Counted from the first letter of the stretch, positions 2,885-32,422 are shown. The stretch: 58,108 nucleotides of DNA from an uncultured Eubacteriales bacterium (GCA_963614875.1 CAVEFC010000004.1:1-58108); one strand, 5' to 3'. The notes: generated from the sequence alone by a model not told the origin. Translations and numbers: made by a program.

Positions 2885-3115
2885 TTAGTAGTCCGGCTCA
2901 GTTATGTTGTCCCAAATTTCCGTCAATGATTTACCGCCGAAGAACTTAACATTCAGAACTTCGTCAACCGACCCAGCGGTCATCTCATCGTCGCCGCACC
3001 ACAGAGTGAACCTGTTCCGGGACAACGGATCGATGCCGCAAGAGCAGCCGTTATAGCCAAACACAATATGGCCGGTCAGCTTTGTAAGATAATCTTTAAC
3101 TTCTGTAATAGTCAT
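2885..3115 (-). CDS. hypothetical protein (76 aa)
   Basis: Its start overlaps the stop of the upstream gene (ATGA at 3112-3115). No recognisable motif. Confidence 0.6.
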   Translation of the reverse strand: MTITEVKDYLTKLTGHIVFGYNGCSCGIDPLSRNRFTLWCGDDEMTAGSVDEVLNVKFFGGKSLTEIWDNITEPDY

Positions 3116-4011
3116 AGAATATCACCATTTTCCTTTCGTTCTTTATCATTCAATTCTCGGATAGGTCTGTCAATCAGATTACCGGAGTCGTCATAAATAT
3201 AATCGTGGGCGTGTTCGCCGTGTTTACCGTATTTATGAGCTTTCGGATGACCGTGACCGTTGTTGCTGATCTGCTTTTTCTGCCTGCCCGATTCGTCATA
3301 GTAGTTGCGATCAATACCGCCGTTTTTGTTAGTGATTTGAGAAATGCTGTTTGGTTTTCCCGTCAACGAGGTATGGGCTACTTTAATTATACTCTTTCCG
3401 GCGGCATTTTTCAATCCGTCGCCATCAAAGCGGTCAAGCGGATAGGGCGGACCGTTTCGTACACCCCACTTTTGACCTTTGATTCCGTGGTGGGCAACAA
3501 CATTGTATCCGAGCCGCCCGCGAAGCTCCCAAAGAATATCTTCCACGGTTTTACGGGTCTTCGGCGCAAGCTTAATATACGCAGAATGTTCCTCGTACCA
3601 GTCGAATATCTCGCTCAAGTCACCTTTTTGCCAGCTGAAAGACCACCAATCGCATATCATCTCGATAATATAATTGTATGGCATCTCCAGTAGAAGCTCA
3701 CCTTCATCGGGGTCATCGTTGATGAGAACCCAATGTTGCCAATGATGAGGATTTCGATGAATATGCAAGAGCCACGCTCGGTTGAATACTTCCACAACAG
3801 CATAAGAGCGATTATTGCCATAGAAATAAGCATCATAGGCGTCATACTCATCCGGATCCGATTTTGATGCGTCGTGCTTAATCTCAACCGTTTCCCAATC
3901 GGGCATGTCCGCACGGTCAAACAAATCCGGCAGGTTGACTTGAAGCCAGATATAACCTTTACGGACATTATCCTTATGGGTTTTCAAGTAAGCGTCATAT
4001 TCTTTACTCAT
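3112..4011 (-). CDS. two-part phage protein: N-terminal His-rich domain (HRNPHHWQHW; DUF5662-like from memory) and C-terminal KGQKWG / His-rich tail
   Basis: 299 aa with an RBS GAAGG upstream. Motifs seen: IHRNPHHWQHW, HHGIKGQKWGVRNGPPYPL and GHGHPKAHKYGKHGEHAHDY. Confidence 0.7.
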   Translation of the reverse strand: MSKEYDAYLKTHKDNVRKGYIWLQVNLPDLFDRADMPDWETVEIKHDASKSDPDEYDAYDAYFYGNNRSYAVVEVFNRAWLLHIHRNPHHWQHWVLINDDPDEGELLLEMPYNYIIEMICDWWSFSWQKGDLSEIFDWYEEHSAYIKLAPKTRKTVEDILWELRGRLGYNVVAHHGIKGQKWGVRNGPPYPLDRFDGDGLKNAAGKSIIKVAHTSLTGKPNSISQITNKNGGIDRNYYDESGRQKKQISNNGHGHPKAHKYGKHGEHAHDYIYDDSGNLIDRPIRELNDKERKENGDIL

Positions 4012-4316: not shown

Positions 4317-4532
4317 TTATTTGTTTTCTTCGGTTCCTGATTGTTCATGGCTTGTGTCCTTTCTTTCAAAATAACGTCGGATATTATCGCAACGTCTTCG
4401 ATTTTTGCAATGGATAACCGTGTCGGTTATCGTGCTTTCAAAACCGCCGCAATAAATTTTTTGCGGCTTTTCGACATCCGGCTCAAAGTCCATACACTCC
4501 GAGCAGTAGTCTTTTACGTCAACGCGAATCAT
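4317..4532 (-). CDS. Cys-rich small protein (71 aa)
   Basis: The internal ATG at 4532 overlaps the helicase stop (ATGA at 4529-4532). The longer track ORF would run inside the helicase gene. Motifs CSEC...CGG...HC..RRC. Confidence 0.55.
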   Translation of the reverse strand: MIRVDVKDYCSECMDFEPDVEKPQKIYCGGFESTITDTVIHCKNRRRCDNIRRYFERKDTSHEQSGTEENK

Positions 4533-5788
4533 TTTGGGCTCCTTTCCGAAACGGCTTTGGTCTTGTAACTGCTGACATATTTTGTTTCGTTGAAATTTCG
4601 CTTTTCGGTCAATGCACGGCTGATTGCCAGATCGATACCGGAACGGGACTTCAGATGATAATAATATAAATCTTTGAACGGCGTATTCAGACGATCGATC
4701 CGTCCGGCAGATTGTTTCATAATTTTGTAGGAATAATTCTGCGAATAGAACACAATCGTGTCCGTGCTGATACAGTTCCATCCTTCCGCACCGGCGTTGT
4801 ATTGAACAAGGTATACCCAGCTCTTGCCTGTCGGAATCGGCTGATGCTTATGCCCGTTCCATTCCGCAACATCGACCTTGTCCCCGTAACAGAGATTTTT
4901 CAGAATATCAAGTTCGTAGTCGAAGTTGTAAAACACAATCATCTTCGGGTGCTTTTCAAACAGCTCCAGCAGGATCGTTTGCCGTGCTTCGTCTTCATTG
5001 ACAATGCGACGCCAGATATAACAGAGCTCGCTCGCCGTAGCAATAGGCTCGCATTTATACGGATTCCACCTTTTCCGGCTTACCTCCTTATACTTTGCAA
5101 TGTCATATGGCACATAAATATCTTCGTGATGGGAAAGCGTATCCCTTTTGAAATCCATATTCACAAGAATACTGTTTCTCAGCTTTATAAGCCGTCCGAC
5201 TCCCAAATATCTTTCCACCTTGGGATACTTTCCGTTTACCCATGTCATAACCATGTGCTCTTCCTTGAACGCGGTTCGATTCTTATAAAAACCGTTTGCC
5301 ACAAAGACGGGGATATAATCTTCCCATGTATCCCCGGGGGTTGCGGAAAGCAGAATCCATTCGTTTGCTTTGGCAATTTTCAGAAATGACTTTACCCATG
5401 CGCCGGATCCGACGACTCTTTGCTCGTCAAATATAAAGAAAGCGCCTTTGATGTCTTTGTATTTGCCGATGTTGTTCCACGAATCCACAACAACCCTGTT
5501 CTTATAGGCACTGACCTCCGGATGAACGGAAAGAAGAAAGGGCGAAAGCTCGCCCTCCCATTCCAAAGTGTCCCTTTTCCTTGCCGTTGTGATAATATAC
5601 AGGTCTTTTACATTGCAATCATCCATCGGCACGTATTCATCAGTGCCCAGCACTCCGCCGTTTTGCTTGTAGTAATAAGCCAACGCCGTTCTGGATTTTC
5701 CGCTGCCTACACCGCCGCAAAGGATACAGCCGTTTTTCATCCGATCTACCGCGTCGGTCTGGTAGTCCCGAAGAGATACTCCAGCCAT
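4529..5788 (-). CDS. SF2 (SNF2/DEAD-like) helicase
   Basis: Motif I GGVGSGKSRTA, motif II FIFDEQR, motif III LLSATPG, motif VI QSAGRIDRL. The ATG at 5788 overlaps the upstream stop (ATGA). Confidence 0.8.
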   Translation of the reverse strand: MAGVSLRDYQTDAVDRMKNGCILCGGVGSGKSRTALAYYYKQNGGVLGTDEYVPMDDCNVKDLYIITTARKRDTLEWEGELSPFLLSVHPEVSAYKNRVVVDSWNNIGKYKDIKGAFFIFDEQRVVGSGAWVKSFLKIAKANEWILLSATPGDTWEDYIPVFVANGFYKNRTAFKEEHMVMTWVNGKYPKVERYLGVGRLIKLRNSILVNMDFKRDTLSHHEDIYVPYDIAKYKEVSRKRWNPYKCEPIATASELCYIWRRIVNEDEARQTILLELFEKHPKMIVFYNFDYELDILKNLCYGDKVDVAEWNGHKHQPIPTGKSWVYLVQYNAGAEGWNCISTDTIVFYSQNYSYKIMKQSAGRIDRLNTPFKDLYYYHLKSRSGIDLAISRALTEKRNFNETKYVSSYKTKAVSERSPK

Positions 5789-6609
5789 CAATGTCCTCCG
5801 AATATCCGGCGCAGAACCCATACGTTCGAAAAGTACATCGGGGTAAACCAGTAGTTTTCTCTATTGTCGCCGTCCGTAATCGGCTCTGTAAGCGAGTCTC
5901 CGACTTTTACATAACCGGCAACTCCCAGAAGTGTAAGCTGAATATAACACATAAGTGCGGTGATCTCGTCAATGTCCTGAGCAGCAGCAAGAATATAAAG
6001 CTGATAGTTCAGATTAGCCTTTTCCAGCTGTTTTCTTATTGCGTGAATACCGGCAATCAAGGTTGCGCCGGCTCCGCAACAGGGGTCATTGATTAAAATA
6101 TATCCATCCCGTTCAACCTTCTGAACCGCATCGTCCGTCGATACACCCGCCATCAGCTCGCACACACTGTACGGGGTGAAAAACTGTCCGTTATGCGAAT
6201 CGCCGAAATCAAGGGACATAAATATACTGCCGAGAAAGTCCTGTTCGGGATTCTCCTCCAGAGCCAGAATTGTCTGTACAATCAGCTCCGGAAATATCTC
6301 CTGTTCCTGTTTGTTGTATTTCTTGATCGTTTTCAGATATAACGCTTCTCGCTTCTCTCGGTTTCCCGTGTCGAGAGGATTGGAAAGCGTGCAGGCGAAC
6401 ATAATTATAAAATCATGCCAGACATTCCACGCGCGATGGCGGCAGGTCAGCTGTCCGAACGCGTCCATAAAAGCCTTTCTCGGATCGGAACCCTTTTTCG
6501 GTTTTTTACCGGCGGGCTTTTTTGCGGTTGTGCTCTTTCTTTTTTTCTCTGGAGCGGCAGATTGAACCGTCTCCTCCGGCGCCGCCGCTTTCTTCTTTTC
6601 CTGTGACAT
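5788..6609 (-). CDS. N6-adenine DNA methyltransferase-like protein lacking catalytic motif IV; Lys-rich N-terminus
   Basis: 273 aa. Motif X-like FFTPYSVCELMA and motif I NDPCCGAGATLI are present. The protein ends about 35 aa after GDSL with no NPPY/F-type motif. Confidence 0.65.
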   Translation of the reverse strand: MSQEKKKAAAPEETVQSAAPEKKRKSTTAKKPAGKKPKKGSDPRKAFMDAFGQLTCRHRAWNVWHDFIIMFACTLSNPLDTGNREKREALYLKTIKKYNKQEQEIFPELIVQTILALEENPEQDFLGSIFMSLDFGDSHNGQFFTPYSVCELMAGVSTDDAVQKVERDGYILINDPCCGAGATLIAGIHAIRKQLEKANLNYQLYILAAAQDIDEITALMCYIQLTLLGVAGYVKVGDSLTEPITDGDNRENYWFTPMYFSNVWVLRRIFGGH

Positions 6610-6988: not shown

Positions 6989-7471
6989 TCATATAGATGC
7001 TTCCTCCGGTCCCTCGGTTTCCGCATACTTCTCCGCAAATTCATCCTCTTCGATGGTGACATACATGGTTTTAAGGTATGCCTTAACCCCCGTCTTACCG
7101 TTCACTTCCCAGTTATACGGGCGGATCGTCAGATCTACGTTGCGGATTTCGGCAAAGTCCAGAGCGCCTATGGATTCCTCGTCCAGAGAAGTCTGGGATC
7201 TGCGGGTAACCATAGTAACCTTGGGCGGAATATTATCGAAGCTGACCGCCACCTGAATATAATGACGCGGCGCCTCATCCTCATCACGAGGTGACAGAAC
7301 ACGGACATTCCATCCGTCATCTATAAGCTTCTGCGCCATATCCGGATTGTCGATTACCACGCAGAAATTGCGTGAACCGGCGCGGTTGTATTTGGATTCC
7401 TCTCCCTTGAAATTGCGGAATATAATCCGCGCGTTTTCGATGACAATATTGTCTAATACTTTGTAAGCCAT
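6989..7471 (-). CDS. putative single-stranded DNA-binding protein (phage type)
   Basis: 160 aa, sited immediately upstream (in transcription order) of the SF2 helicase block and downstream of the polymerase. It has an acidic C-terminal tail ([11 protein letters not shown]). The assignment rests on context and tail, not on a named motif. Confidence 0.4.
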
Positions 7472-7559: not shown

Positions 7560-10500
7560 TTATCTCACGTCAAACGGGGTAAACTCGTCTTCGTAAGGAT
7601 CTCCCGGCCCGAACCATGGCGGTGTGTCCTCCGAAACATACGGTTCCTCTGCCGTAAACCGCTCAAAATCGCCGTATTCGGACAGAGACTTCACCGCTTC
7701 GTCCACCATATTGTTGTAATATGTACGGTCAATATCTTCCTGCTTATTGAGCTGTTTGACCACTTCGGACTCAAGCCAGCGGAATCCCTTGGAACCAGTC
7801 GCTGCGGCATAGCCCTTCTCCTTGGTTTTCTTGTTCTCCGTTTCACGGAGCAGCACTCCCCCACCGCAGCCGGGCTTAATCGGGCAGAATTGACCGACCT
7901 TTCCGATGAAGTGATAGCTGTGACCATCGACAATGATTTTCTCAAGTTTTTCGAATTCCTGGCACTCCTTGCTCATCGGGTCTTCCAACTTGGAAATATC
8001 ACTAAGCTCCTTAAGCAGTTTGGCATACTGCTTTTCATAATCGCTCACATCCGGCAAGTCTTCATTCATATCGAGATACAGAGCCGAAGTCACGGATTTA
8101 GTTTCGCACATATCCTCAAACTCAATATTTTCTTTACTGAACAGCGTCTTGAATACATACGGAATCTGAAACTGTGTTCCGGTTGCAGTCCAATCGTAAG
8201 GGTGCTTTTTGTTTTCTTTGCAAATATCTTTTGCAGAGTCAATATATTCTTTTCCGTATAAGCCATAACACTTCTCCACGGTCGCATACCTTGCAATATA
8301 AACCGCGTCGTTGACCAGACACATTCTGTCATATGTGGCTTCGTGCTCGAAATTGTAGCCGTACAGTTTACCGTACTCGGTCACAAACCGAATAATTTCC
8401 GGAGTAGCGTCCGGAATTTTGATAGAGTCCGTCTTGATGTGCGCAACGGTAAATCCTTTGTCCTGAACTGCGTGTTTTAGATTGACCATAAACAAAGCCC
8501 CGCGCTTGGCAACAATATTATCTTTATTGCGCGTATCTCTGAACGGGTTCTCGAATCCCGCCGAAGTCAGTCCGTAAACCGAGTTGATTGCGATTTTCAG
8601 AGCCTGAGCCAGATCCGCCGCCGCATTTTCATCGGTCAGGTATTTTGCCAACGCACCGCCCAGCATCTTTTTCGCTTTATCAAAATCTTTATGCTTGATC
8701 GCGATACGAGCCTGAAGAAGTTCGTCAAACCGTTTTGTATATTCCGGTCCGAACAATTCTTCCGCCACAATGCTGCTCGGGTGCATGGATGCAATATCCA
8801 GCAGGGCAATATTACTGTACATACCGGGTTCGGCATATACATATCCCCCCTCGCCGACTTCCTCGCCGCGATAGACCGATTTTCCGTTTTCAAAAATATA
8901 ACCCGGAAAAATCGGACGATGATTTTTGTCAAACGCACAGAACTCGTCCGTATCCTCCAGACTCATGGCAAACGGCAGATCGGCATTCGGGTCAAATATC
9001 TGACTCTCATCCCCCATAAATCGATAATTGAACTGATCCTGTGGCTTTCGGTTGTTGCCGAATATAATTTTTGTAGTCAGGGAATTTGTCGTATCGTTTA
9101 CCGACATACCTGCCACGTCCGCCAGAATCTGACGAGCCGTAAAGTCAGCTTTTCGGGAATTGAAAGTTGCTTCGGTTGCGATAACGTCATTATCGCAGTA
9201 TTCGGCAACCTCAGTCCAACGTTCTTCCGGGACGGGCTTGTCCCAAGGAAGCCCGAGCTCCTGATGATGAATACCCAGCTCAATCTCAAATTTTTTAAGA
9301 GATTGTTTTTTGCTGGAGAAGTCATACACGTCCGTATAAGACGCGTTATAAGCTTCTCCGAAGAAGCAATTTGCGCTTCCGTTGATAATCCTTATCGAAA
9401 GATTAAAAAGCTGTTCGTTCGTATACCCCATCAATCTGGCGTAAAGAATGTGGTTATCATACCGGCGGCAGTTGAATCCCACAAGATTTGCCCGCATAAC
9501 GTTTTCCAGCTGTGCCGGCGTCGGATTGATCATACGGACTACGGGTTTATGGTTTGTCTGCAATTCACGAATATAATCAGACCAGCTGTCAAAGTCCGAT
9601 GGGGAATAATCCTCCGCATACTTCCAGTTCACAAGAAACAGGTTGGGAAATACCTCAACGTCATAAAACACAAATTTAGTGTCGTCATTCTGTATACCTG
9701 CGGATCTGTCGGCAGACTTGAACTGCATTTTATTTACAAGCTTGATACAGTAGTCCGCATGATGCGTACTGCTTGCAGCAAACGCCAGTACGGCGTTGCG
9801 CATATCGGTCACATCATACTTGAGATCGCTTGCATAAGCGTCCTCAAGAATTTTATAAATGAAGTCGATACTTGGCTTAGTAGCTGGGTGGTATTCTTTA
9901 TTAAGGTTTCGCTTGATTTTTGTCCTAAGCCCTTTCTCGCTCTTCACCCCTTCAAAATTTATCACAGGTTTTTCTCCTTTCAGTGGTAAACCCGAGTTGA
10001 TCGTTGCAATAGGTAAATCATTGCATTTTGTCAGCTTGCGTCGAAGCGAGCTTTTTCCGGTAAAGACCTTCACTTCGATATGATCGTCGTAAACCCGGCT
10101 GAGCTTTGACACGTCTCCGGCATAAATATAATGCAGATGAATACCCTGACCGCTTTTGCTGAGCTCCGCATAGGTCGGCGGCCATTTACTTGCTTCTTTG
10201 AGATTCAGCTCAAACGATTTATTACCGTCCTTATCCTGAATATCAAAGTCAATAACAATATGATTTTCCGGAACTTTGACATAGTGCAATCTTGACGTGG
10301 TAAGCTCGCCCAGCTTCGTCGTGACATCGTCCCATTTGACGGTGGGGGTCTCTTTTTCCGAAGCATACTGGGCGGGGCAATCGGCGCATTCTCGGTCAAA
10401 AATGGATTTTTGTTTTAAGAACTCAATCGTCTTATGGTCGGGCTCTGCTTTTTCGGATAAAGTCTGACCTTCAAACTTTTCTGTTCGGAAACCGGTGTAA

Positions 10501-11768
10501 TAACTGCGGACGCGAGTCCCGTCATCAAGATTGAACCTCTCTTTATAATCCCGGAAATAGTTTTTAAGTTCCTCCTTGAAAATTCTTTGTGAGAACGGGA
10601 AGGTAACTTTTGCCTCGTCGCAATAGGTTTTATACATCTCCCATGAGGCTTTGAGAGTTGTCCCGTCTTCTTTCTTAAAGACGTGGTAAGAATCAACAAT
10701 GAAGTTGTAGAAATCATTAGACGCACCGAGCATTGTAATGGGAATATAATCGTCATACCGACCGGGATTCTCCAGATAAACCTCCTGACAATGATATGCA
10801 ATGGCACCCAGCTCAAACTCAATCTGCTTTGTCACCGTCTTGTATTCCCTCGGACTCAGTTTATTTCCGGAAGGGGACACGTCAATCAGTCGTCTTATAA
10901 GACCGGATTTAGCGTCCGTAATCTTTACTGGTTTATTTGTGCCCATAAACAGAAAGCACTTAAAACGGTTTGCATAGGTCGATTTGAACTTTTCGTTTAC
11001 CGTCATAAGCTCATGAGAAACAAGGCTGTTCAAACGGGTATTGTCTTCAATCCGAGACAGATCGCCATCATGCTGAATCGCAACAAGGGGGTTTGTCTTG
11101 AACGCCTCCAGTGCAAAGGAGTTGCTTGAAGAGCCCAGTGCCTTGGCGTCGAAAACCGAGTAATAGCCATCAAAAAGCTGTTGCACAATATTGAGCACCG
11201 TCGATTTACCCGTGCCTGCCGCGCCGTACAGAACCATAAATTTCTGCAATTTCTTAGACTCTCCACATACTATCGAACCGATAGCCCATTCGATTTTTGT
11301 CCGTTCCTCTTCGGAATATAATGTGGACATAAGCCTGTCATATGCGTCGATGGTTCCTTGCTCCAGCGGATAGTTCAGCCTTTTGCTTGCATAGTCTTTT
11401 TTGTTTGTCGGCATATTTGAAAATATCAATTTCTCATCCAGCATATGAAACGAATCCCGCATCTGCTTCTGGCAGTATTTATGCCACGAATCGATCATTC
11501 CGGATTCCGAATCCCACATATGCAGAACTTTGATGCCTGCGTCGAAATGCGTGCGGTTTTCTTCCGCATACCTGTCGAGTTCTCTGTCGATAAGCTGGAG
11601 TGCGTCCTGCTCATCCGTAGACCACAGACCGCGTTCTTCCAGCCATATAGCATAAAAATCACCGCCTCTGATCATCAGGTCGGAGCTTTTCTTAATGATA
11701 AACTTCGGATAGATTTCTATTACGCCACGCTTTGTACTACGGGTTGAAATCATTAAAAAGTCGATCAT
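7560..11768 (-). CDS. fusion replicase: SF3 (D5/P4-type) helicase + prim-pol + family B DNA polymerase (1402 aa)
   Basis: Walker [10 protein letters not shown] (aa 182-190). Prim-pol motifs VIDFD (505-509) and GIHLHY (542-547). Exo I FYDVE (701-705), Exo II FNCRRYD, Exo III YCDND (857-861). Pol motif A DIASMHPS (991-998), motif [10 protein letters not shown] (1058-1066), motif C KTDS (1112-1115). Confidence 0.85.
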
Positions 11769-13486: not shown

Positions 13487-14404
13487 TCACATCTTTTCCC
13501 AGATATTGCCCTCGACATTGAAATCAAGAAGCAATGCAGGTTCGTGACGGCCGTCAGAAGTTTCGCGTTCGACCTCGACAATGCGGAAATTCACGTAACC
13601 GTCCGGACCGTCTTTTGTCCATCCGACAATCTGGCCGGCCGGGGTACGCGGCAGATCGAGATCATCCAGCACTTCGTTCAGGAAAAGATGCCCGCGCGTC
13701 TGAAGCTTGTCGTTGGCAAACGCCTGCTGAGCTTTAAGAAACATGAGATTATAGTCCATAGTGTTCTCATAGCAACGGCTTCTGTTGTCAAAATAAACGG
13801 CATAGTCGCTCTGAAGATTCGGGTCGGTCACCATCACTGTTTTTTTTACTTTTTTCTCTTTGCCCGTTTCGGGATCGATTTCGACTTCTTCAAATTTTTT
13901 TGCCTTGATTCCGTACTTAAGCTCGGTATCAACCTGCTCCCCGAAACGCTCGACAACCCGCCCGCGATATTCTTTGAAGCTCTTGTCTATTGCGGCATAA
14001 GCCGCGCCCAGAGCCACATTGCGCTTACGCAAAATATTGTTTGACGCAAGAATACCCGTAATGGACAGCGAACCGAGAATAATGGCAGGGGCGTACAGCT
14101 TAGCCAGTTTAACGCCTGTCTGAGCATAAACCATGACAATATCTTTTTTGCCGTCTTCAGACGTATATGTCTGTCCGTTGATAGCTCCGGCTTCCATGCC
14201 TGTGTGAATCGTATCAAGGGTTTCTTTGCTTTCGCTTAGAATTTCTCCGATTTTGGTGGTTGCTTTGCAGGCAATAACCGCGCTCGCAACAGCACCTACA
14301 ACACCGGCTATAACAAAAATCTCCGGGCTGTGTTTTCTGAATTTCATAACGGCTTTGGATGTAAAGCCGCTTATGCTCTTCATGAATTTGGTTTTGTTTT
14401 TCAT
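13487..14404 (-). CDS. phage membrane protein, paralogue 1 of 3 (305 aa)
   Basis: Shares KHSPEI..TM..CKAT.K...TM..LRKRN.AL.AAYA...Y...V.E.FGE and a C-terminal G..VGW motif with 15931-16692 and 18194-19018. Confidence 0.75.
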   Translation of the reverse strand: MKNKTKFMKSISGFTSKAVMKFRKHSPEIFVIAGVVGAVASAVIACKATTKIGEILSESKETLDTIHTGMEAGAINGQTYTSEDGKKDIVMVYAQTGVKLAKLYAPAIILGSLSITGILASNNILRKRNVALGAAYAAIDKSFKEYRGRVVERFGEQVDTELKYGIKAKKFEEVEIDPETGKEKKVKKTVMVTDPNLQSDYAVYFDNRSRCYENTMDYNLMFLKAQQAFANDKLQTRGHLFLNEVLDDLDLPRTPAGQIVGWTKDGPDGYVNFRIVEVERETSDGRHEPALLLDFNVEGNIWEKM

Positions 14405-15930: not shown

Positions 15931-16692
15931 TTACTGATAATCATAAACCGGCGCAATCTGGTAGTCGATCACAAGACAAGGCGTTCCGTTAGCGTCGAGC
16001 TGGGACGAAAAAGCAAGGTCGATATATCCTTTGTCAATATTCCAGCCGAGCATATCGCCCATTTTGGTACCGTCCAGTCCGAGTTCGTAATAAAACTCGT
16101 TCAGTGTAACATACATCTCGTCGCGCATCTGTCGGTTAAGATCGTTCATAACCCGAACAATTTTATCCCTGTCGGACTTGAAATATCTTCCGGATAGAAC
16201 ATCATAGCATATGGTGTTTCCGCCCTTCTCTGTGAGAATAACTTCACGGACAGGGTTCCGGATCATTTTCTCCTTTGACACGGAATCGCGGATCGCCTGC
16301 TCTTTTTTCTCCCCGATACTTTCGACCACCTTTTCCTGATACTCCCTCAAAGTAGATTCGGACAGGGTATAGGCGGTTGCCAGAGCCGCATTCCGACGCA
16401 GATTTGTCGAGCTTGCCCCGATCAAACAGATTACCGAAACCGTCCCGACTGCCGCCGCCGGAATATAACAGGGCCATGCGGTCTTGATAATTTCCTTTGG
16501 CTCAAGCCGATCGGTTTCAAGCTCGCTTTTCCTGTCTTCAAGTAAAATCAGAGCCTTGGGGGTTGCTTTTACTGCCATAATGGTAGTTGTAATCATACCG
16601 GCGATTCCGATTCCGGTGAGAATTTCCGGACTATGTTTTTTCATTGCCGTCCGTACACTTCTGGCAATGCCGGATAAACTTAGTTTAGCCAT
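15931..16692 (-). CDS. phage membrane protein, paralogue 2 of 3 (253 aa)
   Basis: KKHSPEIL..AVKATPKALILLE..CYIPAA..LRRNAALATAY...LNEFYYELGL..GDMLGW aligns with 18194-19018 along its full length. Confidence 0.75.
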   Translation of the reverse strand: MAKLSLSGIARSVRTAMKKHSPEILTGIGIAGMITTTIMAVKATPKALILLEDRKSELETDRLEPKEIIKTAWPCYIPAAAVGTVSVICLIGASSTNLRRNAALATAYTLSESTLREYQEKVVESIGEKKEQAIRDSVSKEKMIRNPVREVILTEKGGNTICYDVLSGRYFKSDRDKIVRVMNDLNRQMRDEMYVTLNEFYYELGLDGTKMGDMLGWNIDKGYIDLAFSSQLDANGTPCLVIDYQIAPVYDYQ

Positions 16693-19391: not shown

Positions 19392-19467
19392 GAGAGACTG
19401 TATCGGATTCGAACCGACGACCCCCACGGAAGTGTGGTGCTCTACCAACTGAGCTAACCCGTCTCTC
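19392..19467 (-). tRNA. tRNA-like gene, non-canonical (possible pseudo-tRNA; anticodon region resembles Gly-UCC)
   Basis: The reverse complement reads GAGAGACGGGTTAGCTCAGTTGGTAGAGCACCACACTTCCGTGGGGGTCGTCGGTTCGAATCCGATACAGTCTCTC. The D arm (GCTC AGTTGGTA GAGC) and T arm (GTCGG TTCGAAT CCGAT) are canonical. The anticodon arm is 3 nt short, and the acceptor helix is extended and imperfect. Confidence 0.45.
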
Positions 19468-23284: not shown

Positions 23285-24517
23285 ATGCTTATAAAATGCC
23301 CCGAATGCGAATTACAGGTCAGTGACAAGGCTTCGACTTGTCCTCACTGCGGCTATCCTTTGCAGGCAAATATAAAACCGCGCAAACCCCGGAATAAGAA
23401 TAATAAACGAAGACGGTTGCCGAACGGCTTCGGACAGATAAGTGAAATCAAAAACCGAAATCTTCGTAATCCGTTTCGTGCAATGGTAAGCGTCGGGAAA
23501 GATATAAACGGCAGACCTATCTGCAAACCGTTGAAACCGGAATCATACTTTCCGACTTATAATGACGCATATGCAGCTCTTGTGGAATATAACAAGAATC
23601 CTTATGATCTGGGGGCATCTATTACCGTTAAAGAACTTTATGAAAAATGGTTCGTTGAATACGAAAAGAGCGTTAAAACCGGTGGTCCTATGACATACGC
23701 TTGGCAATATTGCTCGGCTGTATACGATATGAGAGTAAAAGACATTCGTGCCCGTCACATCAAAGGGTGCATCGACGAAGGAACCGTGACAGTCAAAGGG
23801 CGAACACAAACTCCGAACGCCCTTATGAAAAAGCAAATCAAATCGTTGTTTAATATCATGCTGGACTACGCTCTCGAATATGAGATCGTTGACCGAAACT
23901 ATTCTCGCACATTCAGTCTCAGCGATGAAACGGTCAAAGAGCTTGATATGGTTAAAAATGAGCACATTCCGTTTACAAATGAAGAAATGGATTTGCTTTG
24001 GGCGCATGCCGATGATAAAATGCTGGTAGATATCATTCTTATACAGTGCTACTCCGGCTGGCGTCCAAGAGAACTCAGTTTAATTGAGTTACAAAATACA
24101 GATCTTGAGAATTGGATTTTCAAAGGCGGCATGAAAACCGATGCCGGCACGGATAGAGTTGTCCCGATACATTCTAAAATTCGTTATCTGGTTGAACGAA
24201 AATATAAAGAGGCACAGAAGCTCGGTAGCCCGTACCTTTTCAATTATTCAAATCTGAACTCCAGAAGCAATTCCACTTTTCTGTCATATTCCAGATATCA
24301 AAAAGCTTTCGATATGATCAAAACCGAGTTAAATCTGAATCCTGAACACCGCCCGCACGATGGTCGCAAACACTTTATCACTATGGCTAAAAAATACGGT
24401 GTTGACGAGTATGCCATTAAATATATGGTGGGGCATCAGATCTCCGACATCACGGAAAAAGTTTATACACAGAGAGAATTTGAGTGGCTTAAAGATGAAA
24501 TCGAAAAAATAAAATAG
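23285..24517 (+). CDS. int: tyrosine site-specific integrase with N-terminal Zn ribbon
   Basis: 410 aa. N-terminal CPECE...CPHCG. C-terminal catalytic signature ...HRPHDGRKHF...MVGHQ...KVYTQ (R-H-R-Y type). Confidence 0.9.
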   Translation: MLIKCPECELQVSDKASTCPHCGYPLQANIKPRKPRNKNNKRRRLPNGFGQISEIKNRNLRNPFRAMVSVGKDINGRPICKPLKPESYFPTYNDAYAALVEYNKNPYDLGASITVKELYEKWFVEYEKSVKTGGPMTYAWQYCSAVYDMRVKDIRARHIKGCIDEGTVTVKGRTQTPNALMKKQIKSLFNIMLDYALEYEIVDRNYSRTFSLSDETVKELDMVKNEHIPFTNEEMDLLWAHADDKMLVDIILIQCYSGWRPRELSLIELQNTDLENWIFKGGMKTDAGTDRVVPIHSKIRYLVERKYKEAQKLGSPYLFNYSNLNSRSNSTFLSYSRYQKAFDMIKTELNLNPEHRPHDGRKHFITMAKKYGVDEYAIKYMVGHQISDITEKVYTQREFEWLKDEIEKIK

Positions 24518-25027: not shown

Positions 25028-26152
25028 ATGTACACAAATCAGCATCCTGAAATTCAGCCCGATACGCTCAACGAAATTCTTGCCCTTCGTCCCGAAGGCG
25101 CGGAAAACTGCAAAAAAACCGTTTCTGATCTTCACGACCGTATGAAAGGTGCGGTTATAGGAAGATTTGCCGGCTGCGTTCTCGGTATACCCGTAGAGCT
25201 TTACAAAATGTCGGATATGCAGGCGCTCGCTATGGAATGCAATATGCAGTATCCGCCCGTTGATTATTGGACAGGAACCGATCATCCCGAAAAAATTCAC
25301 TATCAGGTAAACAACAGAACCGAATATATTCTTGAAAATATAAACAAGGTTCCGGTTGATGACGACATAACCTATACCATTCTCAATCTGCTTCTTCTCG
25401 AAAAATACGGAAAAGGCTACACGGTAGACGATGCCGGCAAGTTCTGGCTCGATTATCTTCCCTATGCCTGCACCGCGGAAAGCGAAGCGCTTATGCAGCT
25501 TCGTGCGGGAACAAAGGCAGAAAGCGCGGCAAACTTCAACAATTATGTTGAATGGATAGGCGCAGCCATCAGAGCGGACGCTTTCGGATATGCGGAAGCC
25601 GGCGATCCCGAAGCCGCCGCAAAGCTTTCTTATCCGGACGCTTATCTTACCCATCGTCAGAACGGTATTTACGGTGAAATGTTCTGTGCGGCAACCGTTG
25701 CGGCAGCTTTCACGGCAGAAACTCCTCTCGACGCGGTAAAAGAAGGTATGAAGCAGATCCCGAAGGAATCCGAGCTTTATAAAGAGCTTGAATGGGCGTT
25801 CTCCTGCGAAGAAAAGGTTACAAACTATATCCGTGCGCGTCAGCTTCTTGACGAGCATTTCCCCAAAATGCACCCCGTTCATACAATAAACAATATGTGC
25901 GCTATCGTTTTCGCGCTTATGCTCGGCGGAAAGGATTATACAAAATGCATAGGCAACTGCGTTGCGATAGGTCTTGATAACGACTGTACGGGCGCGACCG
26001 TCGGCAGTATCGTCGGCGCCTGCATAGGCTTCAAAAACATTCCTGAGCATTGGTACAAGAACTTCAACAACACCGTTATGACATATATAAACGAGCATCC
26101 CGCCCTCGCCCTTGACGACGTTATCGACAGATTCGTAAAGCTCAACGGCTGA
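25028..26152 (+). CDS. ADP-ribosylglycohydrolase family protein
   Basis: 374 aa. Motifs GAVIGRFAGCVLGIPVE, VDDDITYT and GLDNDCTGATVGSIVGA are typical of the ARH/DraG family. Confidence 0.85.
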   Translation: MYTNQHPEIQPDTLNEILALRPEGAENCKKTVSDLHDRMKGAVIGRFAGCVLGIPVELYKMSDMQALAMECNMQYPPVDYWTGTDHPEKIHYQVNNRTEYILENINKVPVDDDITYTILNLLLLEKYGKGYTVDDAGKFWLDYLPYACTAESEALMQLRAGTKAESAANFNNYVEWIGAAIRADAFGYAEAGDPEAAAKLSYPDAYLTHRQNGIYGEMFCAATVAAAFTAETPLDAVKEGMKQIPKESELYKELEWAFSCEEKVTNYIRARQLLDEHFPKMHPVHTINNMCAIVFALMLGGKDYTKCIGNCVAIGLDNDCTGATVGSIVGACIGFKNIPEHWYKNFNNTVMTYINEHPALALDDVIDRFVKLNG

Positions 26153-27031: not shown

Positions 27032-30000
27032 TTACTTATCACCGAGAATTGTATTGGAAAGAACACAATATGTGCCGTCAACTACGATGTACTCGAAGTA
27101 GATAGCGGGAGCCGACTGCTGGTAACCAAATTGATACTTAAGAGAGTATGTGTAGGCGGGAGAATTAGCAAAGCCCCAGAACTGACCATCATAATTCTTT
27201 GTTACAACAGAAGCCTTGTAGTCTTCGAGAGCCTGTTTAGCTTTGTCGAGAGTCTCCTTTGCTGCTGCCTTGGCTGCAACATACTGTTTGTCAATAGCGT
27301 TATAAGCTTCCTCAGCCTTTGTTATAGCTGCCTTCTTTGTCTGTATATTGCTTGCAACTACAGAAGGAGTCATAAGCGATACTGCCGTAGAATCGCCGGC
27401 TTTCTTGAAGTTGCCATCAAAGTCAACATAGAAGAATGCCCACTTGAAGGATGATGCATCAACTTCCTTGCCGTCGATCTTAGCCTTAACGCCGCCGTTG
27501 GCATCTGTGGATGTGATGTAGCCAACCTCTGTAGCAACGCCGGTCGATACGATCTTACCGTCCTTATTTACTACATAATAGCCGGCAGGCATGCCTGTGC
27601 TTACGGAAGTAGCGAATGCAGCTTCTGCATATGTAGAATATGTGCGATAGATAGAACCGAAGGTTTCGCCCGAAGGAACAGTTGTGGCTACGTATGTGGA
27701 TTTAACCACTACTTCTTTGCCGAGCTCTGTAATTTCAAGAGTTGAACCTGCTTTGCCGAGGTAAACCGTTACGGTTTCTTCGGGCTTGGTTGTGTCGTCG
27801 TCCTTCTTGATGCCGTCTGTGTATTCACCGATAACCGTAAGCGCCTTAAGGATCTTATTGTTGTCGGATGTTGTGGAGTAAACCTGTTCGTATGTTACGA
27901 AGAGATCCTTGCTGTCCTTAATGAACGAAGCAAGAGTTGTTGTTGTGCCGTCGAGGTTGCCCGTTGCGGGGTTAGGAGTCATAACGATAACCGTAGCGTC
28001 GCCGAATGCATAGTATGTTGTGCCGTCGAACTTAACTTCATATTCACCGTAAGGATATACTTTGCTGTCGCTTACGATGTCAAGTTCTCTTGCGGTAACG
28101 GTGTTAACCTTTGCAAGGTCTTCGCTTGTAACCGTTTCAACCTTCCATTCAACGTCGTAATCGGGCTCGCTCTTTGTTACGGTAACAACAGGATTGCCGT
28201 TAGCGTCATATTTCTTAACGCTTGAAGATGTGTTTACTCTGTAAAGATAGTTACCGAGTACTTTGTACTCTGTAGGTACGCCGTAACCGTCCGTTGTCTT
28301 GCTTTCCCATTCAGTTATTTCAGCCTTTGAGGTAACCTTTATCGGAGCTCCGTTTTCGTCCGATACTATAATGTATGTCTTTATTTCGCCCGTCATTGCA
28401 TGTGCGGCAGTAAGAGTGATCTTAGCATCCGCAACGTACCATTTCTTTATAAACTTGGACGTGCCCGCAGACTTCTCATAGTAAGGATCCTTGGCAACCT
28501 TAACAGTGACCGTCTTGGTATCGATTATTTTTCCTTCCTTTAAAGCTGCAACTGCTTCTTTTTCATACTTTGCAACCTCAGCGCTGATATCGCCGAGATA
28601 GATGTAGCCGCTGTAAGAGCTCCAGTTGTCTGCAGGAGAATCTGTAGATCTCTTGAATGCATATCTACCCTTGTGATTATAATGTTCACTTGAGAAGCCG
28701 CAGTTACCAGCAGCAATATCAACTCCGTCAACGCGTTTTACTGCATACGGGAGAGATATATGATCTGTTTTTACAAAGCCCTCAGATGTTACATTCTTAT
28801 ATGCATCAGCATCATACTTAAGAACATACTGACCTGAAGCATCATCAAGAATAGAAACGTAAACAAGGTCGTGCGGGTTTACATACGTCTTGCTTGTTTC
28901 ATCCTGCGGATGATATGCGTTTTCGTTTGTAGCAAATATTCTGTTGTACATGCCAACATTTGTTATATCCCAAAGAACGGATGCGCTTGCTCTTACTTCG
29001 TAAGTCTTAACGCCAGTAGAACCGGGATGAGAAATTACAGAGTCAAGATATTTATACTGAGGACCTTCTTCATTATAACTTGTCTGGTCCTGAATTGTTA
29101 CGCTTGCGTTACCAGTCCGGTTCCAGCCGTTGTTTGCAGTACCTGTATCTGATTTTACTTCAAATACAGCTCTTTCAAAACGTCCGCTTGCAATGATACC
29201 GTCAAGAAGCTGTACCATATATCCATATGCTACATTTGTACGTACATTGTTCTTGTTTGCAACAACATTTTCAAAGAATACTTTCTTGTCAAATGTCTGA
29301 ACATCGTCATATTTTGCAAATGTATCAAGAATCTGACCAAGAGTTACTTCTTCGTATGTCTTCTTTGCGGCTGCATAATCATCAGGATATGCGATTGTTG
29401 TGAGAAGATTGCCTTTTTCATCTTTCTTCTGAACATAATTTCCGTCTGCATCCTTTACATATGCACCAGCTGCATCTTTTTCATAGTCAGGCATCTTACC
29501 AGTCGGCCATTTTCCCTGAGCAACTTCATAGTTATACAATATGCACCAGCCAACAGTATTTTTGCTTATAGCTGTTTCAAAATCAACAACAGTATCATCA
29601 AGCTGTTTGTCAAGTGCTGCAAGAGTTTTGCCATATATAGCATTCATATCTGCTGCCGTAGCTTTGAGAGCTGTGAGAAGGTTTCTTGTATATGCAACCA
29701 AGTTACCATTCATCTCTGTTACGCTCAAGTTCCAAGTGGTCTGGCCTTTGTCAACCTTTGCAGGATCACACTCAGGGATTTCATAAACCCATGTGTGATT
29801 TGCCTTTGAATACTTTTCAGCATCAAAGCCAAGAGTTGTAAGCGCATCTCTTATTGTAATGCTATCGTTAGTCCAAGGAGCATTTACGCCGCCGCTATCA
29901 ACAGTCTCTTGATTGAGAACTCTTGTTGAACCAAAACGAGCTACATAGCAGAATCTTGCGTCGAGTGCATTATCAAAATAATGAACGCCGCCGCCTTCGT

Positions 30001-32032
30001 ATTCATTTGTAACTGCGAGTGTTACGTTGAATGTATTGTCACCTGTTTCGCTCTTTTCAACCTTAACTATAAAGCCATTAGCTGTTGCGTTTTCAGCTGT
30101 TGTATCTTTTACATAAACAACAACGTTTGCTGCGTCGCCTGTAAGAGAGCTGTCAAGGTCGCCTGCGAGAACGTACTTAACTGCCTTGTTGTAAACGATA
30201 CCCTTGAATTCTTCTGCATCAAGTACGTCGTTTACTGTGCCGGTTGTTTTGATATCAAGGAAGGAAGTCCAAGCCTTAGAATCAACTGTAGCCGTAGCCT
30301 TAAGACCTTCAACTGTATAAGTAATCTTTACTGTAGCAGGTCTGTTAGCATATGTTTCGTCTCCATTTTCGTCCTTTGCAGGAACGGGAATGTAAACGGT
30401 CTTTGTTTCTTCAGCGTTGCCGATAGTAGCAACTGTTGCTGTGTAATACTTCTTGCCGCCGATTGTCTTGAAGCCGGATGTATCAACAGCTACGATAACG
30501 CCTGCAGAAACTGTGCCGATCTGGATAGTTATGTATGTTTTATCGGAAGCATTACCGTAAGTGCTAAGAGTAACCTTATCGTCATCAAAGGATACTGTGG
30601 GAGTTGATGTGAACTTCTTTGTCTTAGCAACAACAGCTATATCATAATAACCGTCTGCGTCGATATCATAGAATTCAACTCTTGCGCCACCGTTAGCAAC
30701 GTTCGGTATAGCAGCCTTTGTCTGTGCTGCTGTAAGCATTGTGAATGTGCTATCATAAACAACGAGCTCTTCTGCACCAAGTGTATTGAGGTTGTTTACG
30801 ATTGTGTATTCAACAGCGCTTTCAGAGCCGCCCTTAAATACGAGCTTGTTTCCGGAGAAAGAAATTTCATATGTGTATTTCTTTTCGCCGTTAACTTCGT
30901 ATGTAGCGGATGTGTAAGATGTAGGAAGTTGAGGTGTTGCATCTGCGTTGCCGGCTTTATTGGCGAACTTAGGATAATCACCAACAGTCTTTATTGTTCC
31001 GTCATAGTTGTATGTATGAGCGGGGCCTGCTGCTGCAACAAGAATTGTGTCAGAAACAGCCTTTGTGCTTCCGGAGAAGAGAGTTACTGCAACGTTTTTG
31101 CCGTCTTTTCTTGAAAGCTGGAAGATTGTTTCGTTCTGAATGTAGTCACCAAGATTGAACTTGTCGTCCGAAGCAAGGTCACGTGTTGCACTAAGTCCGA
31201 GAGATACGCGAACGAGTCTTTCGAGTTCGTCTGTATCAAGAACAACTTCTTCGCCCGCTTCACCTGTGCTTGTTATTGTTTCAACTGTTACAGTAGAAGA
31301 TGTGATAAGAGTTTCCTTAATCATATCAACTGCTTTAACTCTTACGAGGTCTGCAGAAGTGTTAACTCTGCCAAAGTTCTTGCCAAGGTTTTCGCCCTTC
31401 TTTGTAAGGCAAGGAACATCGTCAGAAGTATTGCCCCAGTTGAGGATCGTTGCGAGGAGGTATGCAGCCTCGCCATAAGAAAGCTCATAATTGGGGTTTA
31501 CAGTATTAACATTAGACATAAATGTCGTGTCGAATGCATGGCAGAATTTGTTTGCCGTATACATCCAGTTATACTGCCACTGATCGCCGTTCTCGGGAAC
31601 GTCGTTCTGGAAGCCCATAAGTCTTACGATAATAACACTTGCTTCAGCAAGAGTTATTGTAGCATTGGGTCTGAAGTTGCCGTCACCGTCACCGGCAATC
31701 AGATTACGCTGATATGCATAGCATATAGCTGCTCTGTGCGCCTTATCGGTATCAGCCTGGTCTTTGAAAACTACCGTGTCAGCAAGGACACCGTTTTCAT
31801 CCCACCACTCAGTGTTTACCCAAGTGCTGTCGATCTTAGCGATCATAAGAGCGAATTCAGCTCTTGTGACCTTTTCTTCTGCTTTAAGGCCAACGTCAGC
31901 AACGCCGATGTTCTTGAGATAAGAAACGGCACTGTTGTACCAAGTAGCCTTAGCTGCAGAAACGCTTGCAAACGCGCCGATTACCATTGTAAGAGCGAGC
32001 ACGAGTGCAAGAATTCTTGAGATGTTTTTCAT
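27032..32032 (-). CDS. very large cell-surface protein with N-terminal signal peptide and three SLH domains (1666 aa)
   Basis: ATG at 32032 with an AGGAGG RBS. Signal peptide MKNISRILALVLALTMVIGAFASVSA. SLH-like segments follow (..VTRAEFALMIAKI.., ..NFRPNATITLAEASVIIVRLMG.., ..LSYGEAAYLLATILN), then a long Thr/Val/Lys-rich beta-type region. Confidence 0.85.
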   Translation of the reverse strand: MKNISRILALVLALTMVIGAFASVSAAKATWYNSAVSYLKNIGVADVGLKAEEKVTRAEFALMIAKIDSTWVNTEWWDENGVLADTVVFKDQADTDKAHRAAICYAYQRNLIAGDGDGNFRPNATITLAEASVIIVRLMGFQNDVPENGDQWQYNWMYTANKFCHAFDTTFMSNVNTVNPNYELSYGEAAYLLATILNWGNTSDDVPCLTKKGENLGKNFGRVNTSADLVRVKAVDMIKETLITSSTVTVETITSTGEAGEEVVLDTDELERLVRVSLGLSATRDLASDDKFNLGDYIQNETIFQLSRKDGKNVAVTLFSGSTKAVSDTILVAAAGPAHTYNYDGTIKTVGDYPKFANKAGNADATPQLPTSYTSATYEVNGEKKYTYEISFSGNKLVFKGGSESAVEYTIVNNLNTLGAEELVVYDSTFTMLTAAQTKAAIPNVANGGARVEFYDIDADGYYDIAVVAKTKKFTSTPTVSFDDDKVTLSTYGNASDKTYITIQIGTVSAGVIVAVDTSGFKTIGGKKYYTATVATIGNAEETKTVYIPVPAKDENGDETYANRPATVKITYTVEGLKATATVDSKAWTSFLDIKTTGTVNDVLDAEEFKGIVYNKAVKYVLAGDLDSSLTGDAANVVVYVKDTTAENATANGFIVKVEKSETGDNTFNVTLAVTNEYEGGGVHYFDNALDARFCYVARFGSTRVLNQETVDSGGVNAPWTNDSITIRDALTTLGFDAEKYSKANHTWVYEIPECDPAKVDKGQTTWNLSVTEMNGNLVAYTRNLLTALKATAADMNAIYGKTLAALDKQLDDTVVDFETAISKNTVGWCILYNYEVAQGKWPTGKMPDYEKDAAGAYVKDADGNYVQKKDEKGNLLTTIAYPDDYAAAKKTYEEVTLGQILDTFAKYDDVQTFDKKVFFENVVANKNNVRTNVAYGYMVQLLDGIIASGRFERAVFEVKSDTGTANNGWNRTGNASVTIQDQTSYNEEGPQYKYLDSVISHPGSTGVKTYEVRASASVLWDITNVGMYNRIFATNENAYHPQDETSKTYVNPHDLVYVSILDDASGQYVLKYDADAYKNVTSEGFVKTDHISLPYAVKRVDGVDIAAGNCGFSSEHYNHKGRYAFKRSTDSPADNWSSYSGYIYLGDISAEVAKYEKEAVAALKEGKIIDTKTVTVKVAKDPYYEKSAGTSKFIKKWYVADAKITLTAAHAMTGEIKTYIIVSDENGAPIKVTSKAEITEWESKTTDGYGVPTEYKVLGNYLYRVNTSSSVKKYDANGNPVVTVTKSEPDYDVEWKVETVTSEDLAKVNTVTARELDIVSDSKVYPYGEYEVKFDGTTYYAFGDATVIVMTPNPATGNLDGTTTTLASFIKDSKDLFVTYEQVYSTTSDNNKILKALTVIGEYTDGIKKDDDTTKPEETVTVYLGKAGSTLEITELGKEVVVKSTYVATTVPSGETFGSIYRTYSTYAEAAFATSVSTGMPAGYYVVNKDGKIVSTGVATEVGYITSTDANGGVKAKIDGKEVDASSFKWAFFYVDFDGNFKKAGDSTAVSLMTPSVVASNIQTKKAAITKAEEAYNAIDKQYVAAKAAAKETLDKAKQALEDYKASVVTKNYDGQFWGFANSPAYTYSLKYQFGYQQSAPAIYFEYIVVDGTYCVLSNTILGDK

Positions 32033-32422
32033 AGTATTCCTCCTATATTTTTTAGGTGCGTTGGGGGATAATCCTCCCCCGGTAGCTATCCTAGCATTGT
32101 AATAATACAAAATTGCAGCATTTATTTCAAGAGGTTCGCGCGTTTTGTAATAAAACTGTAATATTTCGCGGACAATTTTGCTTTCCTTTAATATAATACG
32201 ATACAATCGCGACAAAATCAAGCGCTTCGGCTCATCTGTAACACAACTGAAACATTGCCCCGCGCCGCGCATTTGCCGCAACGGGCAAAGAAAAAATTTA
32301 ACCCCCTGTCTGCCGGATGCGGCAGACAGGGGGGGGTTGCGGTTTTTATATACTCGGAAGTATCCGATAATTTTCACTTCAGCAATTTATATGAAAATCT
32401 ATATTATCCGCTTTTGCGGGGT

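Follow-up and report, generated by a model that had tools for sequence, protein, structure and literature searches.

A GP55-like helicase-primase-polymerase gene in a probable FP_oengus-like prophage of gut Clostridia

What kind of replication enzyme carries a helicase, a primase and a complete family B DNA polymerase (PolB) in one chain, and to what kind of element does it belong? The question is raised by a 58,108-nucleotide stretch of DNA from an uncultured Eubacteriales bacterium (GCA_963614875.1, CAVEFC010000004.1:1-58108; hereafter the window), in which positions 7560..11768 of the minus strand hold a gene for a protein of 1402 amino acids (aa). The data presented here indicate that this gene very probably codes for the replicative enzyme of a temperate siphophage that resembles FP_oengus and is integrated in the chromosome of a gut Clostridia bacterium, and that the enzyme is a member of the HelPrimPolB or GP55-like family of "four-in-one" replicases. 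Architecture, predicted folds, conserved catalytic residues, family size and prophage context were all established directly in this analysis. The reference protein is GP55 (orf55) of Lactococcus phage 1706, which was purified as a single polypeptide in 2025 (Zhang et al., NAR, PMC12205980).

Domain composition of the replicase

The gene is one open frame of 1402 codons plus a stop codon with zero internal stops, as the initial annotation had proposed. It is attributed to the GP55-like family from this open reading frame (ORF), from alignments with GP55 and with the FP_oengus homologue, and from the family profile phrog_4210 ("DNA polymerase", profile length 1304), which matches aa 2-1380 with 2056 bits. 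For comparative purposes, nine family members were aligned and the alignment was split by domain for use as profiles; it comprises deposited phages of Faecalibacterium, Lactococcus, Arthrobacter, Gordonia, Curtobacterium and Streptomyces and a siphovirus from an oral metagenome. D3 and F4, close to the N-terminus, are invariant among these homologues, which supports the start codon.

From the N-terminus onwards, the chain is composed of a superfamily 3 (SF3)/D5-type helicase (DUF5906), a PrimPol-type archaeo-eukaryotic primase (AEP), a four-helix domain and a PolB with 3'-5' exonuclease. That the three enzymes are joined in one polypeptide was an initial proposal from motifs, and is here backed by profiles and predicted folds. 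All of the motifs were recovered at the expected residues, i.e. the Walker A sequence GAAGTGKS (aa 182-189), the AEP motifs VIDFD (aa 505-509) and GIHLHY (aa 542-547), the exonuclease motifs FYDVEVF (aa 701-707), GFNCRRYDN (aa 764-772) and YCDNDV (aa 857-862), and the polymerase motifs at aa 989-998 (motif A segment), aa 1058-1066 (KIAINSVYG) and aa 1112-1115 (KTDS). The motif residues show no variation in the nine-member alignment, and in 43 representatives of clusters formed at 50% identity they are either invariant or conserved to at least 90%, so that chance matches can be dismissed. The placement of the helicase ahead of the primase is indeed atypical, as had been noted: in 94% of primase-helicase fusions, the primase precedes the helicase (Kazlauskas et al. 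2016, PMC4889955).

The N-terminal helicase module (aa 1-440; 10449..11768, minus strand) was delimited by its equivalence to GP55 residues 1-439 and by profile matches in the PDB. It consists of a conserved N-terminal region (aa 1 to ~150) and an SF3/D5-type NTPase core at aa 180-293 (10890..11231, minus strand), which matches Pfam DUF5906 over profile positions 1-114 of 114 with an E-value of 1.6e-12. In a Pfam scan of the whole replicase, this was the one domain to reach the cut-off. The P-loop core displays Walker A (G182-T190, including K188), Walker B (D234), sensor 1 (N278) and an arginine finger (R292/R293), each invariant in the nine-member alignment, as expected for a D5-like SF3 helicase akin to those of P4 and NrS-1. 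Searched against the PDB, the family profile for this region retrieved the primase-helicase 7OLA (E 1.3e-6) and NrS-1 6K9C (E 8e-5).

The second domain, a PriS-like or PrimPol-type AEP at aa ~470-600 (9969..10361, minus strand), was assigned from its predicted fold, from Foldseek comparison and from its equivalence to the region around GP55 D509. Motif I comprises D507 and D509, motif II reads S539-G-x-G-x-H544-x-H546, and E565 provides the third acidic residue; D507, D509, H544 and E565 are invariant in the 43 diverse cluster representatives. When these representatives served as input, AlphaFold modelled aa 441-690 with a mean predicted local distance difference test score (pLDDT) of 93.8. 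Comparison of the model with the PDB in Foldseek gave ten significant matches (E 5e-5 to 5e-4), exclusively to pRN1 ORF904 or NrS-1 PrimPol, the next match being at E 0.4. The predicted fold and the motifs together thus point to an AEP catalytic core with its DxD, sGxGxHxH and third acidic elements. NrS-1 primase-polymerase and pRN1 ORF904 are accordingly the nearest solved folds for the AEP, and NrS-1 also for the helicase. Both differ from the window replicase in that the AEP precedes the helicase and polymerises DNA itself, with no PolB present. They also feature a helix-bundle domain in place of the alpha-helical domain (aHD) of the GP55 type (PMC12205980). In the window replicase, the aHD spans aa ~610-685 (9714..9941, minus strand) according to the AlphaFold model and residue mapping from GP55. 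It is modelled as four helices (aa 611-622, 630-646, 654-665 and 671-680), and its Y651 and F663 are the equivalents of GP55 Y655 and F667.

The C-terminal half is a PolB. Its 3'-5' exonuclease subdomain (aa ~695-880; 9129..9686, minus strand) was identified from invariant residues and GP55 equivalence and contains Exo I (D703/E705), Exo II (N766/Y770/D771) and Exo III (Y857/D861), all invariant in the family. The polymerase subdomain (aa ~950-1230; 8079..8921, minus strand) contains motif A (D991-x-x-S-M-H-P), motif B (K1058-x3-N-S-x-Y-G) and motif C (H-I-K1112-T-D1114-S). Family profiles were needed to place it by sequence: a PDB search with the whole protein as a single sequence gave a marginal match to DNA polymerase II (Pol II; E 0.09), and the PolB family profile retrieved Escherichia coli Pol II with an E-value of 1.8e-7 spanning motifs A to C, together with archaeal PolBs and Pol alpha. 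The AlphaFold model of aa 691-1402 (pLDDT 90.4) agrees with this placement. Its best 50 fold neighbours in the PDB are all RNA/DNA-primed PolBs (9N/KOD/Tgo, Pol alpha, Pol II and the enzyme of African swine fever virus; E 1e-13 to 3e-11), and no phi29-type polymerase is found among these 50. With Exo I-III, motifs A-C and these neighbours, the domain is assigned to the RNA/DNA-primed family B polymerases.

Relation to GP55 and proposed mode of action

The initial annotation had regarded the fusion of a primosome to a replicative polymerase as unusual. This part does not hold. The fusion was first reported in 2016 for gp55 of Lactococcus phage 1706 (Kazlauskas et al., PMC4889955); in 2020 the group was named HelPrimPolB, defined as PolBs with an N-terminal SF3 helicase and PrimPol, and described as prevalent in metagenomes (Kazlauskas et al., PMC7544198); and GP55 was characterised biochemically in 2025. 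A literature search on the HelPrimPolB name and on newer GP55 work returned nothing beyond these three papers. The architecture, the atypical domain order and the divergent motif C are thus already known, and the gene is an ordinary prophage gene.

In BLASTP, the replicase and GP55 show 39% identity (E 0) in an alignment that covers aa 19-1367 of the former. Of the residues mutated in GP55, K189, D509, Y655, F667, D712, E714 and D949 correspond to K188, D509, Y651, F663, D703, E705 and D991, and all are conserved. The other motif I aspartate, GP55 D507, aligns with D507 of the replicase; the available part of the GP55 results includes no D507 mutant. According to that report (PMC12205980), GP55 possesses a UTP- or dTTP-dependent helicase that is lost in K189A, a primase that synthesises RNA primers with a preference for a GTP start and for 5'-CCAAC-3' and that is lost in D509A, a DNA polymerase activity lost in D949A, and a 3'-5' exonuclease activity lost in D712A/E714A. 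The aHD is essential for priming, which is abolished by mutation of Y655 and F667. GP55 further shows strand displacement, forms dimers and replicates ssM13 DNA de novo; without residues 1-439 it no longer dimerises and loses most of its strand displacement. Priming and polymerisation take place at separate sites, which can cooperate in trans within the dimer.

The window replicase thus shares domain order, end-to-end homology, the mutagenised residues and a divergent motif C with GP55, and phage single-stranded DNA-binding protein (SSB) and superfamily 2 (SF2) helicase genes lie downstream in both phages. It is 85 aa longer, carries four insertions in the PolB half, and differs in its C-terminal region, which bears an acidic tail ending in ...TPFDVR. 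The settings differ as well, with a temperate phage of a gut Clostridia bacterium on one side and Lactococcus phage 1706 (Fremauxvirus) on the other. Compared with the HelPrimPolB group as a whole, all defining features are present and nothing substantive differs, which makes the protein a further member from a gut prophage.

By analogy with GP55, we infer the enzymatic activities, nucleotide preferences and oligomeric state of the window replicase. The N-terminal SF3 module would unwind the duplex and, as in GP55, might also contribute to dimerisation and strand displacement. On the exposed single strand, the PrimPol-type AEP and the adjoining four-helix aHD would make short RNA primers de novo, and the C-terminal PolB, of the RNA-primed type, would extend these primers and proofread by means of its 3'-5' exonuclease subdomain. 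Replication would be supported by the phage SSB and SF2 helicase encoded nearby and by the NrdD/NrdG ribonucleotide reductase.

Several points weigh against this assignment. Identity to the characterised GP55 is only 39%, and the activities are assigned by homology. Pfam PF09250 (Prim-Pol) reaches 14.2 bits (E 0.06), short of its gathering score of 22.8, and is sub-threshold even for the isolated domain; weak matches to it occur in seven of the nine family members. A family profile of AEP plus aHD found no credible sequence relative in the PDB, the best match being a lactococcin immunity protein at E 0.07. As a consequence, the AEP is assigned from its motifs, its predicted fold and the mutagenesis of GP55. 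Compared with the GP55 and actinophage sequences, the PolB half contains clade-specific insertions at aa ~717-737, 917-948, 1163-1190 and 1235-1278 (9558-9620, 8925-9020, 8199-8282 and 7935-8066, minus strand), as located in alignments with GP55 and the nine-member family, and the C-terminus differs from that of GP55. Finally, the window covers a single arm of the prophage.

Prophage setting and type of element

The closest annotated phage relative of the replicase is the "helicase/polymerase" of FP_oengus (AUV56521.1; Oengusvirus), with 59% identity over 100% of the length and the same final residues, ...FDVR. The temperate siphophage FP_oengus, which possesses a tyrosine integrase and is frequent in human gut viromes (PMC5883640), shares ancestry with the 1706-like phages of Lactococcus and with a supercluster of actinobacteriophages (bioRxiv 10.1101/842583). 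Eleven proteins of the window have matches in FP_oengus whose order is conserved, the outermost being the integrase (47% identity) and the SF2 helicase (65%). An Oengus-like prophage is characterised by early and replication genes that are colinear with those of FP_oengus and end at a tyrosine integrase. Given this colinearity, the integrase and the host genes that follow it, the window is interpreted as containing host flank and, over ~24.5 kb, one arm of an integrated Oengus-like prophage. The neighbouring genes are only 24-65% identical to those of FP_oengus, and the phage is therefore regarded as a different species or genus. NrdD and NrdG are also encoded by the window element.

Downstream of the replicase and in the same direction lies the phage SSB gene (6989-7471, minus strand), with matches to Pfam Phage_ssDNA_bind (E 1.6e-59) and phrog_4787 and with orf66 of phage 1706 as a homologue. 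The SF2-type DNA helicase (4529-5821, minus strand; phrog_62, E 3e-65) is 65% identical to its FP_oengus counterpart and 38% identical to orf67 of phage 1706. Between the two sits a gene for an N6-adenine DNA methylase-like protein (5788-6609, minus strand; Pfam N6_Mtase, E 5.8e-11; phrog_5696), the end of which overlaps the start of the helicase gene by 34 nt; tblastn found no counterpart of this protein in FP_oengus or phage 1706. Further along the minus strand follow a DUF5662 protein (3112-4011), the anaerobic ribonucleotide reductase NrdD (878-2794; Pfam E 2.7e-200) and an NrdG-type radical-SAM activase (415-915). NrdD and NrdG have no match in the compared part of FP_oengus, its first 36.4 kb. 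By synteny with FP_oengus, genes for terminase, portal, capsid, tail and a YonO-like RNA polymerase would be located beyond coordinate 1 of the window.

On the other side of the replicase, small early genes occupy the minus strand from 11778 to ~23200. Among them is a paralogous pair of the unknown-function family phrog_2152 (13487-14404, also matching Pfam DUF6353, and 15931-16692, both minus strand). The paralogues are situated upstream of the replicase with 1.5 kb between them, and both have FP_oengus counterparts. A phage-borne tRNA was detected at 19395-19463 (minus strand; Rfam tRNA, 37.7 bits). ARAGORN assigns it no anticodon, and the best-pairing anticodon stem, CCAC/GTGG, leaves a loop of 6 nt (ACTTCC) rather than 7; this tRNA may be degenerate or unusual. 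At the end of the element lies a tyrosine integrase that bears a zinc ribbon at its N-terminus (23285-24517, plus strand; Pfam Phage_integrase PF00589, E 1.6e-12), and the attachment site should lie between ~24.5 and 25.0 kb. Host genes are found from ~25 kb onwards, after the integrase, and the G+C content is higher beyond ~36 kb. The flank comprises an ADP-ribosylglycohydrolase (25028-26152, plus strand), a 1781-aa SLH-domain protein that is likely of host origin and has no other Pfam match over most of its length (27032-32377, minus strand), and the host genes for RNase Y (32423-33994, minus strand) and galactokinase (34872-36131, plus strand).

Because only ~24.5 kb of the element are contained in the window, with neither structural genes nor the second attachment site in view, the prophage could be conceived as a decaying remnant in which an intact replicase no longer serves phage replication. 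We consider this unlikely. The 4.2-kb ORF is intact and retains all catalytic residues, the neighbouring genes are likewise intact and syntenic with those of an active phage, and close relatives are located on contigs of 54-60 kb, which is about the size of a phage genome.

That the element is integrated, encodes a PolB and has a recombinase at its end also invites comparison with pipolins and casposons, to which the initial annotation had felt the locus closer than to typical temperate phages. Integration itself was correctly recognised. The likeness to self-synthesising elements was rejected on the type of integrase, the synteny with FP_oengus and the fold neighbours of the PolB, and is rated very improbable. 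The piPolB of pipolins is comparable in that it, too, is a PolB encoded by an integrated mobile element and allows DNA to be synthesised de novo. It primes with its own PolB active site and forms a separate PolB group linked to protein-primed enzymes (Redrejo-Rodriguez et al. 2017, PMC5695915). By contrast, the window replicase possesses a putative separate AEP priming domain, in line with the loss of priming in GP55 D509A (PMC12205980), and a PolB that resembles RNA-primed enzymes, and it resides in a tailed-phage prophage. The 2020 classification places HelPrimPolB as a divergent member of the PolEpsilonN-like clade (PMC7544198). In addition, the recombinase is a tyrosine integrase akin to that of a siphophage instead of the Cas1 integrase (casposase) that, along with terminal inverted repeats, marks a casposon, the genes next to the replicase match phage protein families, and no Cas1 was found among the window ORFs scanned, the far end of the element being outside the window.

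Conservation, distribution and the C-terminal tail

Motif C deserves separate consideration. The reading of KTDS in place of DTDS was correct, yet the deviation is no peculiarity of this gene: it is invariant in all nine aligned members and in 120 of the 120 best homologues, at least 90% conserved in distant representatives, and present as VKTDS in active GP55. With the first aspartate missing from motif C, and with the AEP fold nearest to the DNA-polymerising enzymes of NrS-1 and pRN1, one might picture the PolB as a catalytically dead relic and the AEP as the domain that makes DNA, as in phage NrS-1. This is highly implausible, and an inactive PolB owing to KTDS was rejected. GP55 is an efficient polymerase with the identical motif; either D949A or deletion of the PolB domain kills synthesis, and the GP55 AEP makes only RNA (PMC12205980). 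A MotifC and a KxY profoundly different from those of other PolBs were noted as traits of the HelPrimPolB group (PMC7544198), and the (near) invariance of KTDS, motif A D991 and motif B across the family indicates purifying selection on the active site.

Far from being rare, the fusion defines a common phage replicase family with a characterised member. Matches were obtained in 257 phage records, 252 of them with the full-length fusion and including cultured phages; most are annotated "DNA primase/polymerase", from phages of Arthrobacter (95), Gordonia (55), Streptomyces (54) and Lactococcus (13). The actinobacteriophage proteins of this name (Arthrobacter, Gordonia, Streptomyces cluster BI, Curtobacterium, Rhodococcus) are homologous to the window replicase over the full length, with 42-50% identity and the same catalytic residues. 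They belong to phages of another host phylum and are devoid of an acidic PF-type C-terminal tail. A search of 5.8 billion proteins returned at least 8000 matches, the best 120 of which show 81-92% identity over 99-100% coverage, are 1344-1407 aa long and derive from independent assemblies. When representatives of 50%-identity clusters were searched with aa 1-1200, 572 clusters were found at E <= 1e-30, and 137 of the best 150 are at least 1200 aa long. Relatives are also encoded in 305 species-representative bacterial genomes. The best 80 of these 305 loci are essentially full length with 61-92% identity, stem mostly from Lachnospiraceae, Oscillospiraceae, Ruminococcus and Christensenellaceae, and include complete genomes (AP018533, Hungatella hathewayi).

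Clostridium leptum DSM 753 appeared at a low rank, and a broken copy was suspected there. The locus holds an intact 1383-aa ORF with 89% identity; the suspicion was discarded, and the rank is attributed to a scoring artefact. Separately, the replicase match of Streptomyces phage Bing (NC_042106, 36238-42983) is in two pieces over 6.7 kb, with three "hypothetical protein" genes in between, which suggests that the Bing gene carries an intervening element (intein, intron or homing endonuclease).

That the three-domain ORF could be an assembly or frameshift artefact joining a helicase-primase gene to a polymerase gene was raised only as a possibility in the initial annotation, found no supporting evidence, and is excluded for practical purposes because the uninterrupted ORF recurs in isolated phages, complete genomes and hundreds of independent assemblies (252 phage genomes, 120 of the 120 best homologues and 80 of the 80 best bacterial loci) and because GP55 was purified as one polypeptide (PMC12205980).

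Of the four insertions in the PolB half, those at aa 717-737 and 1235-1278 are missing even in FP_oengus; a loose motif search found the former in about 10 of the 120 closest homologues. The insertion at aa 917-948 is modelled at low confidence. The chain terminates in an acidic tail (aa 1383-1402; 7563..7622, minus strand) that is predicted to be disordered, with pLDDT values of 31-39 over the last ~20 residues. TPFDVR, the ending of the window clade, forms the terminus in 104 of the 120 close homologues. More broadly, an acidic run followed by [ILVMT]PF, at the end or at most 4 residues from it, is present in 26 of 137 full-length cluster representatives and in 34 of 79 genome loci. Endings in other gut clades include SDELPF, EEAVPF and DEEIPFN (six loci and others). 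GP55 and the actinophage proteins in the nine-member alignment are without such a tail, and the GP55 report mentions neither a tail nor an SSB (PMC12205980).

These endings resemble the C-terminal tip of bacterial SSB. In Escherichia coli, the SSB tip reads ...DDDIPF. It is conceivable, albeit rather doubtful, that the acidic tail is a docking peptide imitating the bacterial SSB tip; this speculative idea is the only lead with any novelty here. Should it hold true, the tail could connect the replicase with host proteins that interact with SSB, or with the ssDNA-binding protein of the phage itself, and docking would represent an undescribed layer of the family mechanism, since GP55, the only characterised member, is tail-less.

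In terms of discovery, the value of the locus is small: architecture, domain order and motif C are published, and one member is characterised biochemically. Its meaning lies in annotation and enzymology. The few homologues whose source names were sampled are called "hypothetical protein" and can now be named GP55-like helicase-primase-PolB replicases. For enzymology, the gut clade provides natural variants, with their PolB-half insertions and acidic PF-type tail, which could be compared with GP55 where such enzymes are developed for primer-free DNA amplification. The replicase family as such is very common in prophages of gut Clostridia and in actinobacteriophages.

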